Below the pieces are notes generated by a model, which worked only from the letters and a program-made list of their open reading frames with translations, did not search any database and was not told the DNA's origin. Made by a program: the position numbers and the translations under genes. This document shows positions 1 through 8,185 of a stretch of 8,186 nt of DNA, in pieces; the stretch's first letter is position 1, and each line of letters opens with the position of its first letter. The stretch is from a virus (taxonomy: Monodnaviria > Loebvirae > Hofneiviricota > Faserviricetes > Tubulavirales > Inoviridae): the IMG/VR virus record IMGVR_UViG_2537561932_000001. One strand, given 5' to 3'.

Positions 1-13
1 CATTATGCGCACT
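1..13 (-). other. dif: Partial dif-like XerC/XerD recombination site, truncated by the window edge
   Basis: Reverse complement of 1..13 is AGTGCGCATAATG, matching 12 of 13 positions of the E. coli dif XerC arm plus the first two central bases (GGTGCGCATAA-TG). The rest of the site would lie upstream of position 1. Confidence 0.5.
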
Positions 14-320
14 GGCGTTGTGGTAGCTGAATTAAGGTGTCCGTGTGGGTACACAAACCCGGGAGTAAAAAAAGAAAACGCCTTATAACCTGGGAAAGTT
101 ATAAAGCGTCCCGGAAAATCCAGAAATGGATACAATGAAATATCCGTCTCAGTCAACGTAATTTACGTCTCAATCAACGTGATATACGGCCTTAACTGAC
201 ATTATGTGTCTACTACCTACTCACCCTCACATAGATGAGCAGCAAGACTATAACAAGTAAACATTACGGCGGATAACACCTGCAGACCTCTTGTTGAAAA
301 TTCCGGCTCAAAAGACGGCC
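11..320. repeat. Tandem direct repeat, copy A (about 310 bp, non-coding)
   Basis: 11..120 aligns with 321..427 at roughly 80 percent identity (ctggcgttgtg..gctgaatt..gtgtgggtacac; gtaaaaaaagaaaacgcc; taacctgggaaagttataa). The 3-prime ends also align (ttgaaaattccggctcaaaagacggcc). The middle is more diverged. No ORF of 60 aa or more. Confidence 0.8.
83..104. other. Conserved hairpin in repeat copy A (7-bp stem, 8-nt loop CTGGGAAA)
   Basis: TTATAAC (83..89) pairs with GTTATAA (98..104). The same loop and stem recur in copy B. Confidence 0.5.
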
Positions 321-388
321 TCTGGCGTTGTGATGGCTGAATTGAGATGTTCGTGTGGGTACACCGGGAAGTAAAAAAGAAAACGCCC

Positions 389-408
389 TATAACCTGGGA
401 AAGTTATA
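389..408. other. Conserved hairpin in repeat copy B (6-bp stem, 8-nt loop CTGGGAAA)
   Basis: TATAAC (389..394) pairs with GTTATA (403..408); loop is 395..402. Conservation across diverged copies suggests a functional structure. Confidence 0.5.
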
Positions 409-503
409 AGGCGCACTGGAAAATCCAGGTAATTATGGGATGTACGCGTCTAAACCAACGTTATGTCCGCCTCAGTATGTGCCAGTCCACTGCCACATAA
501 CAG

Positions 504-531
504 AGTGCGCAAATTGTAACGAGTAAAACAT
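504..531 (+). other. Degenerate dif-like motif with a conserved XerC-arm-like half (candidate attP component)
   Basis: AGTGCGCAAATTGTAACGAGTAAAACAT: the first 7 to 8 bases match the XerC arm of dif (GTGCGCA) and the centre is TGTA-like, but the XerD arm is not conserved. It lies in inverted orientation relative to the site at 1..13. Confidence 0.25.
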
Positions 532-589
532 TATCGCCGATAACACATCAGGACCTCTGTTTGAAAATTCCGGCTCAAAAAGACGGCCT

Positions 590-631
590 GTCAGTCATCA
601 ATTCCATCGAACGGCTTCATCAATGACTGTC
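590..631. other. Imperfect inverted repeat in the intergenic region downstream of the secretin gene
   Basis: CAGTCAT (592..598) pairs with ATGACTG (623..629), with a 24-nt loop. Confidence 0.35.
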
Positions 632-663
632 CGACTCCCGTCTTGCGCCGCTCGTCTCGCTGG

Positions 664-689
664 CTGCCCGCTAAAAGGCGGTCTGGCAG
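664..689. other. GC-rich bulged hairpin in the intergenic region
   Basis: CTGCC (664..668) pairs with GGCAG (685..689); inner CGC (669..671) pairs with GCG (678..680) around loop TAAAAG. Confidence 0.35.
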
Positions 690-811
690 GCGGCGCGTTG
701 CGCTGTTTCCTGCTGCTCTGTCATCTCTCCCCGGTTTCGGCGGGCTGACATCTGCGTCACATGAAACTTCATCATGCCGCCTTACATGTCCTGACGGACA
801 TCATCACACAC

Positions 812-2032
812 TCAGACCCGCCGGGCCTGAAGAACGACGATGATATCGGTTTTCGCACGTTCATCAGAGTCTGAACCAAACACATCCGGCAGAAATGAAA
901 GCCCTGTCCGCGCCTTTGATGTCTTGTTCTCCGCCAGTCCGCCCAGCACAATGATATCACCGTCATTCAGACTCACCGACGTGGACACCTCGCGCTTTAT
1001 CAGCGTTGGCGTGTTATTCACCCCCGTATCCGTTTTTGCAAAGTTACTCAGCTGCTGAACGATATCCAGACCTATCACATCCTGCGTCACGGTGGGTTTT
1101 ACCCGAAAAATAGCCCCGCTGCTGCGGTATTCCACGGACTGCACCGGAACCTTATCCTGCCATGACACTGATGACAGAACCGGCACATCAGACCCCACGC
1201 TGAAAACCGCCTCCTTACCGGAGATAACGCGCAGACGTGGCGAACTGACCACCTGAAAACGGCTGTCGGTCCTGAATAACTCATACATTGCATCAACAGA
1301 CCCCGTGCTGAGGCGAATAAAGTTATCCAGCCCCGATGCGCTGCTCATGGTGATACTGAAACGACCGGATAAAAGCTCTGCGGCCAGCGCCAGACCTGAA
1401 CCGTTACGCTCACTGGTCTGGACCTCAAACACATACCCGGCAACCGAAACCTCCTGTGCCCTGACGTCAATCTGCGGCAGAAGCTGCCGGACAAGCTCAA
1501 CTTCCCGGGCCGTTCCCCGGAACACAAACACATCCCCGGATGCACTGATGAACCGGGTACCACTGCTGACCGCCTGCCATGTCTGCTCACCGTTTGCCCC
1601 CTGAACCGGCTGTTGTGCGGCCGGAAGCTGACCCAGACCGGAAAGCGCCTGATGCAGATACTCCACTGTCCGGTAACGGGGCGTGTAAACAAGGGATTTC
1701 AGCGGCTCCTCTGGTGCGGCAGGTGTATGACTGTAAATATAATCAACGCCCTTTTTACGGCTTATCCTGATATTCATATTACCGAGATAACGGGTAATAA
1801 ATTCCCGTTCATCGATATCCGGTGAAATATGCAGCGTGACGGCCCGCGGGTCATTGACCAGTTCAGGGGCCAGCATGAACGGTGTTTTCAGGACTTCCGT
1901 CCAGAGCAGCGTCACCGCATCAGGCAGGCTCATGCGGTTAATATCCAGTTCCGTCCCGGCTGAAAACGACGGCAGCGGGAATAACAGCGCCATTGCAGGC
2001 AGCACCGGGAGAAGTAATTTTCTGATATTCAT
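812..2032 (-). CDS. gIV: Secretin pIV (outer-membrane export channel for virion extrusion), 406 aa
   Basis: N-terminal signal peptide (MNIRKLLLPVLPAMALLFPLPSFSA). C-terminal region DGDIIVLGGLAENKTSKARTGLSFLPDVFGSDSDERAKTDIIVVLQA aligns by eye with the M13 pIV C-terminus (LLLGGLTDYKNTSQDSGVPFLSKIPLIGLLF..STLYVLVKA). Last gene of the Ff-order operon. RBS AGGGA about 8 nt upstream. Confidence 0.9.
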   Translation of the reverse strand: MNIRKLLLPVLPAMALLFPLPSFSAGTELDINRMSLPDAVTLLWTEVLKTPFMLAPELVNDPRAVTLHISPDIDEREFITRYLGNMNIRISRKKGVDYIYSHTPAAPEEPLKSLVYTPRYRTVEYLHQALSGLGQLPAAQQPVQGANGEQTWQAVSSGTRFISASGDVFVFRGTAREVELVRQLLPQIDVRAQEVSVAGYVFEVQTSERNGSGLALAAELLSGRFSITMSSASGLDNFIRLSTGSVDAMYELFRTDSRFQVVSSPRLRVISGKEAVFSVGSDVPVLSSVSWQDKVPVQSVEYRSSGAIFRVKPTVTQDVIGLDIVQQLSNFAKTDTGVNNTPTLIKREVSTSVSLNDGDIIVLGGLAENKTSKARTGLSFLPDVFGSDSDERAKTDIIVVLQARRV

Positions 2033-2041
2033 ATTCTGTCC

Positions 2042-3298
2042 CTATGGTGTGGTGAGAGAAACGGACATCCCCCCGGCACCGCTGCCGGACGAACGCGACG
2101 GGGAAGGTTCACTGCCTGACCCGCTGTGAAACGTGATGTGTTCGCCATCCAGTTCCAGTACAGTAAGCAGCCCTTCATACGGCAGTTCACTGCGCACAAG
2201 CCGCGTGACGTTGCTGTTACTGCGCAGAATAAAAACCCCCTGCCCGTTACCGTCACGCATATGACCGGAAAGCCGCCAGACACGGGAAAGCGGCAGTTCT
2301 GCCGGAGATGCGACCTGTGGTACAGGCGGCGCTTTTTCAGTGGTGATTACCTGTGGTGGTGCCTGCATGACCGTTGCAGCCGGCTCATCAGGTGTGCCGG
2401 AGAAAAAATCCAGCACAAGACGTCCCCAGAACCAGAAAAACAGGCCACCCACCACAACGGACAACAGTTTTTTACGGCGCGCCTGTTGCTGCTCCTTTCG
2501 TTCCTCTGCCGTGAAGGTCTGCAAATCCCCTTTCTCCTGCCGCTCACGCAGCCGCCGGAACTGCCGGAGGGTTCTGCCGGGCAACAGGGAATACATGGCG
2601 CGCATATCACAGACCCGCTGATGCTCACCCGTTCCGAGCAGTTCCATTCCGTCATCAAATACCATGTTTGTCGGATGGATACCGTAAAAGGACGGCGCAT
2701 AAAAAACGCGGGATTCATTGGGACGGGAATTCGCCCGGGGAACACCGATATAAATTTTTGCCGAAATCAGGTGCGGCAGAAGCCCTTTCCGGCTGCCCGT
2801 ATCGCCAAACTTATCCGGCATGCAGAGTTCCAGAATATCGGACACGACCGGGACACGAATACGATCAAGACGACGGCAGCGGACAATCAGCTCACCCGTG
2901 GATTTAAATATTTTGCTGTCAACGGCGGATTCATCCTGCACCTGAATATAAACATCCCAGCCCAGTTTCCCGGACTGTACAAACCATTTGTAATATTCCA
3001 GGTATTCCCGGCCGGAAGATGTGCCGTTAAGCCATGTTCCGACCTCATCCAGAAATAACGCACCAAACCGCTCCTTCTCATTTTCATCACAACCACGCCC
3101 CAGCGCCCAGAAATCTTCAGGACGAGGACGGGCCGGAAGCACGGTCAACGGATGCGATGAAGCCGGGTCCATTTTTTCAGTATCAAGCGGGTAATTTGCC
3201 GCAATTCTGTGTCCGCGACGGTAAAACTGTTTTGCCACCATGGAGCAGAACAGCCCCTTCCCGTTGCGCATTTTTCCTGTCACCCAGTAAACAGCCAT
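2042..3298 (-). CDS. gI: Zot-like assembly NTPase pI (inner-membrane morphogenesis protein), 418 aa
   Basis: N-terminus MAVYWVTGKMRNGKG matches M13 pI MAVYFVTGKLGSGKT (P-loop). Further matches: LFLDEVGTWLN vs LVLDECGTWFN, KLGWDVYIQVQD vs KLGWDIIFLVQD, IVRCRRLDRIRVP vs VVYCRRLDRITLP. Central hydrophobic segment (VVGGLFFWFWGRLVL). RBS GGGGTG upstream. Confidence 0.92.
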   Translation of the reverse strand: MAVYWVTGKMRNGKGLFCSMVAKQFYRRGHRIAANYPLDTEKMDPASSHPLTVLPARPRPEDFWALGRGCDENEKERFGALFLDEVGTWLNGTSSGREYLEYYKWFVQSGKLGWDVYIQVQDESAVDSKIFKSTGELIVRCRRLDRIRVPVVSDILELCMPDKFGDTGSRKGLLPHLISAKIYIGVPRANSRPNESRVFYAPSFYGIHPTNMVFDDGMELLGTGEHQRVCDMRAMYSLLPGRTLRQFRRLRERQEKGDLQTFTAEERKEQQQARRKKLLSVVVGGLFFWFWGRLVLDFFSGTPDEPAATVMQAPPQVITTEKAPPVPQVASPAELPLSRVWRLSGHMRDGNGQGVFILRSNSNVTRLVRSELPYEGLLTVLELDGEHITFHSGSGSEPSPSRSSGSGAGGMSVSLTTP

Positions 3299-5010: not shown

Positions 5011-5030
5011 AAAAAGGGGCGCACGGCCCC
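5011..5030 (-). terminator. Rho-independent terminator between the major coat gene and pIII
   Basis: Minus strand reads GGGGC-CGTGC-GCCCC followed by TTTTT: a 5-bp GC stem (5016..5020 with 5026..5030) and a T-run (5011..5015). The position matches the known strong terminator after gene VIII in Ff phages. Confidence 0.6.
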
Positions 5031-5051
5031 TGTATTATTAATTAAACAGCA

Positions 5052-5327
5052 TCAGGAAGATGCCATTCTGAAGAGGGATTTAACTACGCGGAAACCAATC
5101 ATTAAAGAAACGCCAAAGCCCAGTAAAAGAAATGCTGCGGTACCCACCACGCCCAGCGTTGACAAAATGGAGTTCACCACCGGGTCAATCATATCCTGGT
5201 TGATAACTGCCTGTCCGGGGGTATAACTCACCCCTTCAGCCAGAACAGGACCGGACGCCAGCATCAGGGAAGATGCAATGACCAGAGGTTTTTTTACGAA
5301 CGTAACTGCTTTTTCACGAACAGACAT
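5052..5327 (-). CDS. Major coat protein pVIII precursor, 91 aa (start moved to internal ATG with RBS)
   Basis: ATG at 5327..5325 preceded by GGAG with a 9-nt spacer. Predicted signal peptide MSVREKAVTFVKKPLVIASSLMLASGPVLA with cleavage before EG. Mature protein has an acidic/polar N-terminus, one hydrophobic helix (LGVVGTAAFLLLGFGVSLMIGF) and a basic C-terminus (RVVKSLFR). Sits in the gene VIII position. Confidence 0.75.
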   Translation of the reverse strand: MSVREKAVTFVKKPLVIASSLMLASGPVLAEGVSYTPGQAVINQDMIDPVVNSILSTLGVVGTAAFLLLGFGVSLMIGFRVVKSLFRMASS

Positions 5328-5347
5328 AATATATAACTCCTGTATTA

Positions 5348-5506
5348 TTACAAAAAAGATGAAAAAAGTGTTTTCGTCAGGGAAAACACATACCCGAAGC
5401 CAAAACCGGCAAGCCAGCTGATGGCCCATATACCAAAAAGCGCAACAAGCGGAGGATAAGAACCCACGCCGGATATTGTCACAAGAAAATTTGTCTCAGA
5501 AAGCAT
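5348..5506 (-). CDS. Small hydrophobic protein in the pIX position, 52 aa (absent from the ORF track)
   Basis: Hand-translated: MLSETNFLVTISGVGSYPPLVALFGIWAISWLAGFGFGYVFSLTKTLFSSFL. Its ATG lies 2 nt after the pVII stop (TAATCATG), and its stop is followed by the pVIII RBS. Longer than M13 pIX (32 aa). Confidence 0.5.
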   Translation of the reverse strand: MLSETNFLVTISGVGSYPPLVALFGIWAISWLAGFGFGYVFSLTKTLFSSFL

Positions 5507-5620: not shown

Positions 5621-7496
<1,876 letters not shown>

Positions 7497-8011: not shown

Positions 8012-8185
8012 ATGAACAACTGGAGTGAGATCATATTAGACCTGCTGATGAAGCACATAATAGGTGGCGCTGCGATTGGCGTGGCTATCCTGTTGTTTGC
8101 CGGAGTGATTTTTCCTGTTGCGCTGAAGATAAGGAAGCTCACTGGCAGGAAAAAACAGCGAATAAAACAGAAACTCATCAGTTAA
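8012..8185 (+). CDS. Hypothetical small single-pass membrane protein, 57 aa
   Basis: ATG 8012 preceded by GAGGGG with a 6-nt spacer. MNNWSEIILDLLMKHIIGGAAIGVAILLFAGVIFPVALKIRKLTGRKKQRIKQKLIS: one hydrophobic helix and a strongly basic C-terminal tail. The upstream in-frame extension to 7787 lacks an RBS and crosses the terminator hairpin. Confidence 0.5.
   Translation: MNNWSEIILDLLMKHIIGGAAIGVAILLFAGVIFPVALKIRKLTGRKKQRIKQKLIS

Follow-up and report, generated by a model that had tools for sequence, protein, structure and literature searches.

The 8,186-nucleotide (nt) stretch of DNA analysed here (hereafter the window; IMG/VR record IMGVR_UViG_2537561932_000001) is a CTX-phi-type filamentous (inovirus) prophage at the chromosomal dif site, without close relative among the deposited phages, and its viral (plus) single-stranded DNA (ssDNA) strand is the window minus strand. 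At its left end, two tandem non-coding repeats, units A and B, lie between the secretin gene and the XerC arm of a dif site (Table 1). At a probability of roughly 0.55, these repeats are an amplified intergenic module that bears a transcription terminator, arose as a by-product of recombination in tandem prophage arrays and has no Xer function. The anatomy of the repeat, the strand concerned, the conservation of the terminator, the variation in copy number and the absence of an attP (phage attachment site) fold were observed directly; on sequence grounds, termination or insulation would then be the main function of the unit, and its amplification would be neutral or nearly so. The apparent second Xer site or satellite proves to be an ordinary 3' spacer, that of an uncharacterised CTX-phi-like Escherichia coli inovirus whose true attP is located at the opposite end of the prophage.

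The original prediction, made on the letters of the window alone, described a tandemly repeated non-coding unit of ~300 base pairs (bp) with conserved ends and a diverged middle, and this description holds. Global alignment of positions 12-321 against 322-589 yields 216 identities out of 259 (83%) with 60 gap columns, corresponding to a z-score of 26.5 against 500 shuffles, and the mean column identity in a MAFFT alignment of the two copies is 81%. The copies abut as proposed, with the limits 12/321 and 322/589 shifted by one base from those first given. Along the unit, identity reaches 78-88% in the first ~120 and the last ~80 columns and falls to 30-60% in the indel-rich middle; counted per 40 columns, 31-35 positions are identical at the ends and 12-24 in the middle. 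The direct-repeat families detected between the copies, at 84-88% identity, pair 12-54 with 322-364, 59-123 with 364-428, and 259-313 with 526-580. The predicted hairpin, CGCC(T/C)TATAAC-CTGGGAAA-GTTATAA(A/G)GCG, is also present in both A and B with the same 8-nt loop. In unit A, the palindrome ACGTAATTTACGT (156-168) lies at the junction of two 21-nt direct repeats, of which unit B holds a single copy (456-476) and related units one or two; from their sequence, these repeats look like an iteron or an operator.

Neither copy appears to encode a protein. Coding by the shared mini-open reading frames (minus strand, 217-279 and 472-546) was rejected since an indel breaks their common frame, and a plus-strand reading, GVVVAELRCPCGY, was rejected on a hand count of 5 first-, 2 second- and 5 third-position changes, that is, no third-position bias. 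Besides, a scan with Rfam 15 (E ≤ 1) returned no match in positions 1-589, comparison of the units with the rest of the phage for similarity or complementarity gave just chance matches of 9-14 nt, and inspection by eye for LexA, CRP, Fur, IHF, ArgR, ArcA and DnaA boxes revealed partial half-site matches only.

On the minus strand, which is both the viral and the messenger RNA (mRNA) strand, the two units each present a stem-loop followed by a U-run, with a stem that has been kept in evolution, as expected of Rho-independent terminators. The shared hairpin, for which a forked dif-like structure had been envisaged, is this terminator instead. Folded as RNA together with the small hairpin that precedes it, terminator A (62-130) reaches -21.9 kcal/mol (z -4.6) and terminator B (366-435) -23.3 kcal/mol (z -5.6). 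Consensus folding of 20 unit variants with RNAalifold retrieves one substantial structure, namely, on the minus strand, a hairpin of 13 pairs and then UUUUCUUUUUU, the 5-bp hairpin lying just upstream; no further helix of more than 6 pairs is found in this consensus, apart from which a few short helices of 3-6 pairs lie near the 5' end of the unit. The main stem is paired in nearly all 20 variants, the pairs of alignment columns 225-235 being kept, and the three central pairs of the small hairpin (columns 210-223) are never broken. Two pairs at the top of the stem covary across the 20 units, and the loops differ. More precisely, the changes in the stem are one-sided, exchanging G-C for G-U or A-U for G-U on the minus strand and producing C-A on the plus strand; being neutral on the minus strand only, they indicate that the stem is maintained as a minus-strand RNA. 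Terminator B is the first terminator met 3' of the secretin gene, and a terminator scan from the secretin stop codon to attP detects no terminator-like site beyond the two in the units. Taken as a whole, the terminator appears from sequence conservation to be the only element of the unit with evolutionary support, conserved flanks being on record as well.

The comparison of related prophages places the unit invariably between the stretch that follows the secretin gene (590-811) and the XerC arm of attP, in a number that varies from none to three, in line with the variable copy number that had been anticipated. A type-1 phage, present in at least three identical tandem copies in strain JNE112863, has no unit and keeps only its first ~40 nt. 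One unit is found in E. coli UTME-13. Two are found in E. coli E24377A, in each of the three tandem prophages of strain 503025 (A and B every time), in the type-2 phage of JNE112863 and in a circular 9.6-kb record, whereas Sx181-0-1 and JNE25-003 have three, in the order A, C, B; metagenome contigs show the two- and three-unit states again. Outside E. coli, a prophage of Edwardsiella tarda (83% secretin identity) contains a single unit that can be recognised (nhmmer E 7e-4), with the same order of features as in E. coli, i.e. GCCGTCTTTTGA, the terminator, ~60 nt and attP. In a more distant relative (59% secretin identity), a mere 45 nt separate the secretin stop codon from attP. The unit is therefore the intergenic spacer between gene IV and attP of this phage lineage, dispensable and amplified in E. 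coli, and its ancestral state is the single copy, since Edwardsiella tarda and UTME-13 each hold one unit in the same position and order. Unit B is at least as divergent as the third codon positions of the adjoining secretin gene, which argues for weak constraint over most of its length.

The Xer machinery is clearly at work in this prophage, at another place than the units. When the E24377A locus (L001), which holds the whole window, is searched for dif with as many as 3 mismatches allowed, the sole match is the genuine site at 11986-12013 of that locus (minus strand; window -14..13), with 1 mismatch to the E. coli dif. This left-end dif reads AGTGCGCATAA-TGTATA-TTATGTTAAAT, in which the XerD arm is chromosomal and lies upstream of the window, and the phage XerC arm directly adjoins unit A at every tandem junction. 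Past the right end of the window, two inverted dif-like sites flank a GC-rich hairpin in the order GGTGCGCATAA, phage central region and XerD arm, loop, and inverted second site. The outer XerC arm, GGTGCGCATAA, is the chromosomal one, whereas in tandem arrays both attP sites are joined to the phage XerC arm instead. This attP occupies L001 20186-20286, so that its first base is the last base of the window (8186) and the rest lies outside. Its fold as minus-strand ssDNA is a forked hairpin (-43.7 kcal/mol, z -11.7), and the version common to five variants (two E. coli types, the circular 9.6-kb record, Edwardsiella tarda and the 59%-secretin relative) has 41 pairs, 11 of them compensatory. Its central GC hairpin doubles as a bidirectional terminator-like stem.

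A covarying forked attP hairpin, and a regenerated dif with a phage XerC arm opposite the inverted attP halves, are the marks of CTX-type integrative mobile elements exploiting Xer (IMEX), so the prediction of a filamentous prophage using XerCD and dif was right. By analogy, integration would proceed through XerC-mediated exchange of the forked-hairpin attP on plus ssDNA; the CTX-type scheme is matched here by the regenerated dif and by the two inverted dif-like sites that fold as ssDNA. In CTX-phi, plus ssDNA is integrated by XerC exchange and completed by host replication, the process is irreversible, and arrays yield phage through rolling-circle replication (PMC4246890); Ypf-phi is a related Xer-exploiting case (PMC4266046).

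The units themselves do not take part in this picture as copies of attP. A covariance model built from the five real attP hairpins recovers every genuine attP in seven sources with 76-113 bits (E ≤ 1e-15). When positions 1-900 of the window were scanned with filters off, its best score was 7.2 bits (E 0.27), which corresponds to the terminator hairpin, and the score over 498-561 was 1.1 bits. The junction between A and B (...ACGGCCT|CTGGCG...) contains neither a dif-like arm nor an Xer half-site. Two candidate explanations of the repeat were rejected on these results: that the units are duplicated attP sites, and that they are serially integrated satellites or mini-IMEX. The half dif-like motif that had been reported at 504-531 does exist, with an XerC arm of 8/11, but its XerD arm matches dif at 4/11, which is chance level, and the XerC-like GTGCGCAAAT is present in B-type units only, the A, C and D types carrying unrelated bases there; it is not an Xer site. 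Likewise, nothing links the units to the control of excision or copy number that had been suggested for them.

Pieces of attP neighbourhoods nevertheless seem to circulate in this spacer. A short block at 517-537, without a matching attP fold, aligns with one attP arm and is possibly, to judge from that likeness, a fossil attP fragment. Some relatives have a second complete attP hairpin, which interrupts the unit near its position 40, and in others the first ~43 nt are replaced by an alternative segment, GTCATAAGATCAGG..., which is tied to a second attP type (also seen at L023 11959-12000). Two complete, different attP sites ~45-50 bp apart were noted at L003 3700-3950, L024 14002-14162 and 23367-23528, and L016 17832-18079. 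Modules from the flanks of attP are evidently swapped and piled up in this spacer, and decayed remnants of them may form part of the units.

In the mechanism that we favour, the plus-strand ssDNA (window minus) would be folded at attP into a forked hairpin and joined to dif by XerC-mediated exchange. Each unit would end, on the viral and mRNA strand, in a strong Rho-independent terminator, and the array would amount to two stacked transcription stops closing the assembly operon after the secretin gene. In the replicative form, these terminators would keep transcription off the attP hairpin, the convergent small open reading frame (ORF) and the regulator genes, and in the prophage they would shield the regenerated dif and the host genes beyond. 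The duplication would have arisen through recombination in tandem, mosaic prophage arrays, a process that would leave relatives with zero to three units. The presence of such arrays at this locus had been foreseen and is well illustrated by JNE112863, in which at least five tandem filamentous prophages of two types lie at dif (chromosome 1603478-1644071; L003); strain 503025 has its three in locus L022. The related idea of a leftover of tandem integration stands in part: the dynamics of tandem arrays are a reasonable origin of the duplication, but the bounds of the units are free of Xer half-sites.

Several observations weigh against this explanation. A terminator needs ~50 nt, whereas the units measure 270-310 nt, and conservation extends beyond the hairpin to ~43 nt at the start of the unit, ~46 nt at its end and the 12-mer GCCGTCTTTTGA. 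On the viral strand, each unit opens with this 12-mer (310-321 and 578-589, minus strand; also L019 10307-10318), which is identical in the Edwardsiella phage, though the rest of that unit can barely be aligned; a related CCGTCTTGAGC occurs 16 nt before attP in the unit-less phage of L020. A -10-like hexamer (TATAGT, TACAAT or TATGAT) is positionally conserved upstream of each terminator. Finally, the paralogue types hold a fixed order in several phages, with A followed by C where present and then by B. Termination leaves three features unexplained, namely the conserved flanks, the 12-mer found also in Edwardsiella and the 21-nt repeats, which suggests an additional function.

The -10-like hexamer leads to the first of the alternatives, according to which each unit is a small-RNA gene, carried as cargo at the place between assembly genes and attP that ctxAB takes in CTX-phi. 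Transcription from a weak promoter (TTATCC-18-TGTTATAGT in A; TACAAT in B) would yield a minus-strand RNA of ~130-190 nt with a variable body and a 3' end made of the small hairpin and the terminator with its long U-tail. In all E. coli unit types the hexamer keeps T1, A2 and T6 in one column, and that of A is TG-extended. A small hairpin precedes the terminator and a long U-run trails it, the ends are conserved around a diverged middle as in the tandem small-RNA paralogues OmrA and OmrB, and the units are dispensable and variable in number, as cargo would be. However, the best promoter score with a position weight matrix (10.0) equals the median of the maxima obtained on shuffled sequences, a simple consensus scan of both strands identifies no promoter in 1-900, and the hexamer is not kept in the Edwardsiella unit. 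No Rfam match and no significant complementarity to the rest of the phage were detected, and conservation within the unit is lowest in the presumed RNA body. A small-RNA gene is thus an unlikely explanation, if one to be taken seriously.

A somewhat more doubtful alternative regards the unit as a cis-element acting on viral ssDNA, either a minus-strand origin or a packaging signal, duplicated as in the miniphages and interference variants of the Ff phages (M13/f1/fd). The site directly 3' of gene IV on the viral strand is indeed that of the Ff layout, and the z-scores of folding favour the minus strand (-2.3/-2.8, against -1.8/-0.5 for the plus strand). The unit travels with the morphogenesis module across three families of replication initiators (Rep) and is kept in plasmid-borne mini-elements devoid of phage genes. 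Besides, short hairpins can act as packaging signals in integrative inoviruses (bioRxiv 10.1101/2023.12.30.573655). On the other side, the type-1 phage persists in its identical tandem copies with nothing of the unit but its beginning, and the 59%-secretin relative has only its 45 nt between secretin stop and attP. Terminator hairpin aside, no hairpin is conserved among the unit types, and the Ff-type set of hairpins is not seen. The stretch 590-811, which is always present, is a better candidate for such a signal: it is kept in all relatives, including the unit-less type-1 phage, as well as in the plasmid mini-element, its ssDNA fold has a z-score of -2.0, and it is accordingly proposed as a candidate packaging signal or minus-origin in preference to the units. 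RefSeq annotates a 41-amino-acid (aa) ORF inside it (623-748, plus strand), and the only Rfam match in the window, isrA at 616-720, scores 20 bits there against a gathering score of 51 (E 0.5).

The exchange of attP flanks described above also permits a more speculative view, which we hold to be improbable. The XerC-proximal ~40 nt would be an accessory element linked to attP and each unit the fossil of an earlier attP-flank module, phages accreting such modules by integrating into one another's junctions, and the resulting stack, placed right at the XerC side of dif, would either influence Xer recombination (its directionality or the array size) or provide the phage with small RNAs.

That the units are themselves Xer-related, being duplicated or fossil attP sites or accessory sequences of the cer/psi kind that affect integration, excision or array copy number, is very unlikely. 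It is true that they abut the XerC arm, that short pieces resemble attP arms above shuffle expectation, that the first ~35-40 nt stay beside the XerC arm where the remainder is lost, with the alternative version going with the second attP type, and that two intact attP hairpins are stacked in the spacer of some relatives. Nevertheless, 1-900 holds no attP-like fold or sequence match, the XerD arm of 504-531 is no better than described above and its XerC-like stretch is specific to B-type units, the A|B boundary lacks an Xer half-site, unit B has its ~40-nt segment without any neighbouring attP, and the ArgR- and ArcA-box matches found by eye are no better than a half-site.

Finally, the notion that each unit is a rolling-circle plus-origin, whose duplication spins off minicircles or miniphages of ~300 nt bounded by Rep nick sites, has next to no credit left and was rejected: it is true that the highly conserved AGGCCGTCTTTTGAG opens every unit on the viral strand and coincides exactly with the duplication boundary, and that Ff miniphages carry duplicated origins, but near-identical B units (96-100%) occur in phages with three unrelated Reps (Rep_trans, Phage_CRI-type and P2-A-type, the last being Phage_GPA-type), and the A-B array shows no difference among 8 genomes and diverged phages retain the A-C-B order, whereas two functional origins in the same orientation are unstable in Ff, where the DNA between them is deleted. 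In CTX-phi, RstA nicks the DNA within Ig-1, adjacent to rstR and on the opposite side of attP (PMC8265649).

Set against known systems, the prophage resembles CTX-phi/RS1, Ypf-phi and CUS-1 in its Rep_trans (RstA-like) initiator and its Zot-type assembly protein. Also as in these elements, its attP consists of two inverted dif-like sites that together give a forked hairpin on plus ssDNA, one side of the prophage bears a regenerated, functional dif, and prophages occur in tandem or mixed arrays with mosaic genomes (PMC4246890, PMC4266046). It differs from CTX-phi in encoding its own secretin and in that the slot between assembly genes and attP is filled by zero to three non-coding terminator modules and not by toxin or cargo genes. 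As to the Ff phages, the likeness lies in a non-coding region right after gene IV on the viral strand, which can be tandemly duplicated and at which the distal operon ends. The differences are that each unit has one conserved hairpin in place of the hairpin A-E series, that it is dispensable in relatives, and that it is tied to no single Rep family, which argues against a plus-origin. Transcription of the distal operon of Ff ends in a Rho-dependent manner, whereas termination is here predicted to be intrinsic. Compared with tandem intrinsic terminators at operon ends, the units have in common a GC-containing stem, a short loop and a U-run, in series after the last gene, and differ in that each terminator is embedded in a 270-310-nt repeat with conserved flanks. 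The accessory sequences cer and psi are similarly a few hundred bp of non-coding DNA on the XerC side of an Xer core, but no ArgR, ArcA or PepA site was recognised in the units, which also occur away from any Xer core (unit B and the plasmid copies). The tandem small RNAs OmrA/OmrB and PrrF1/PrrF2 are likewise adjacent copies with conserved ends, a diverged middle and intrinsic terminators; unlike these, the units have no promoter above chance, belong to no Rfam family and are least conserved in the putative RNA body.

Table 1. Features of the window, with positions counted from its first base.
Feature	Position	Strand	Evidence or remark
Phage-derived XerC arm AGTGCGCATAA (3-13) and 2 nt of the central region of the regenerated dif	1..13	-	dif match, 1 mismatch
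Unit A, 310 nt, attP-proximal copy	12..321	-	A-type orthologues in L003, L004, L005, L015, L018 and metagenome contigs
Intrinsic terminator A (predicted), 15-17-bp stem (75-112) followed by TTTTCTTTTTTT	62..112	-	Terminator scan, fold, conservation
Small 5-bp hairpin CUGGA-UUU-UCCGG directly 5' of terminator A	111..123	-	B counterpart at 416-428
Two 21-nt direct repeats GTCTCArTCAACGTrATwTAC in unit A	133..174		Direct-repeat search
Unit B, 268 nt, secretin-proximal copy	322..589	-	B-type orthologues 82-100% identical, linked to three Rep families
Intrinsic terminator B (predicted), 14-bp stem (383-414) followed by TTTTCTTTTTT	366..414	-	Terminator scan, fold, conservation
Half dif-like motif, judged no Xer site	504..531	+	dif 16/28; XerC arm 8/11; XerD arm 4/11
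Short block like one attP arm	517..537	+	TAACGAGTAAAACATTAT-CGC versus attP TAACGTGTAACACATTATGCGC; local alignment score 27, 0/300 shuffles
GC-rich conserved non-coding stretch, unit B to secretin stop	590..811	-	95-97% identity among relatives
Gene IV-type secretin, last gene of the assembly operon	812..2032	-	Pfam Secretin (E 1.8e-25) and annotation
Zot/pI-type assembly ATPase	2042..3298	-	Pfam Zot; 32% identity to M13 gene I
Rep_trans (RstA-like) rolling-circle initiator	5966..7192	-	Pfam PF02486 (E 1.5e-21)
57-aa hydrophobic ORF adjoining attP	8012..8185	+	Position constant across relatives

The first 620 bases of the window are 100% identical to positions 1701170-1701789 of the E. coli O139:H28 strain E24377A (NC_009801.1) and to 7 further complete genomes, which makes 8 genomes with an identical A-B array. 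Among 5,426 complete E. coli genomes, matches were obtained in 22 by megablast and in 30 by blastn. In E24377A, the prophage is flanked by remnants of the fimbrial gene ydeT and by hipA/hipB, that is, by the dif region. The hipA gene to its right (L001 20373-20633) is truncated and annotated as lacking its C-terminus; it is intact in the prophage carriers L003 and L023, and the portion visible in L004 is likewise uninterrupted. The E24377A annotation of the window comprises, all on the minus strand, a GspD-type secretin, a Zot-domain protein, several hypothetical proteins and a replication initiation factor, in agreement with the Pfam matches Secretin, Zot, Phage_Coat_A and Rep_trans and with structural genes that all lie on the minus strand. 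Searching the INPHARED phage collection with the whole window by megablast gave zero nucleotide matches, and a protein search with the gene I product (pI, Zot-type; ~32% identical to that of M13) led only to distant Ff and Vibrio relatives. The secretin-based search for loci returned one distant locus among GTDB species representatives and near-identical fragments only from IMG/VR, and a literature search on this prophage or on small RNAs of E24377A found nothing specific.

The Ff phages have a terminator after gene VIII, and their transcription ends after gene IV. The former is echoed in the window by a strong GC hairpin, AGGGGCCGTGCGCCCCT, followed by TTTTTT (5015-5031, minus strand), located past a short ORF (5052-5429), possibly the counterpart of the coat-gene region. 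The 57-aa ORF at the right end has a basic tail (MNNWSEIILDLL...) and stands beside attP in every relative and in the plasmid relics; without a Pfam match, it may encode a small membrane protein, for instance a superinfection-exclusion or toxin-like factor.

For the annotation of such prophages, the junction between XerC arm and unit delimits the dif-integrated element in the 22-30 of 5,426 genomes concerned, whose listed hosts are in many cases human or livestock isolates, and the number of units should not be taken as a count of integration events. If the flanks of the terminator are functional, they would represent a new cis-element or small RNA of integrative inoviruses. The mosaic arrays also offer a compact natural system for the study of module exchange among Xer-exploiting phages. 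The block formed by the secretin, Zot and coat genes and the unit occurs in combination with three unrelated initiators (Rep_trans, 398 aa; Phage_CRI-type, ~375 aa; P2-A-type, 660 aa) and also with different regulators (loci L001, L003, L004, L015 and L016). The association of one block with three initiators points to extensive modular exchange, as expected of hybrid genomes across tandem prophages.

Related sequences were also encountered outside the chromosome. The circular record of 9,613 bp (NZ_AP045060.1; L002), deposited as a plasmid, is the extrachromosomal form of a related phage, with two units, attP and the small ORF; it is interrupted by ISEc31 and has many fragmented coding sequences. 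Relics of such phages lie on large plasmids of E. coli and Escherichia albertii (L005 9543-11326; L043 408-4690; L017 4050-4116; L070 3444-3488) and are of two kinds. The first consists of a dif-like site with a phage-type XerC arm and 35-38 nt of the unit. The second is a mini-element of ~1.3 kb without any phage structural gene, made up of a unit, ~150 nt of the 590-735 stretch, ~580 nt of unknown sequence, the small ORF and attP, and could be a decayed prophage or a satellite. Finally, a solitary D-type unit that has lost its first ~45 nt lies ~250 bp upstream of lpxR, the gene of a lipid A deacylase (L006 7841-8053; L017 6000-6208), an association found on several plasmids of ~100-165 kb, mostly from pig and cattle.

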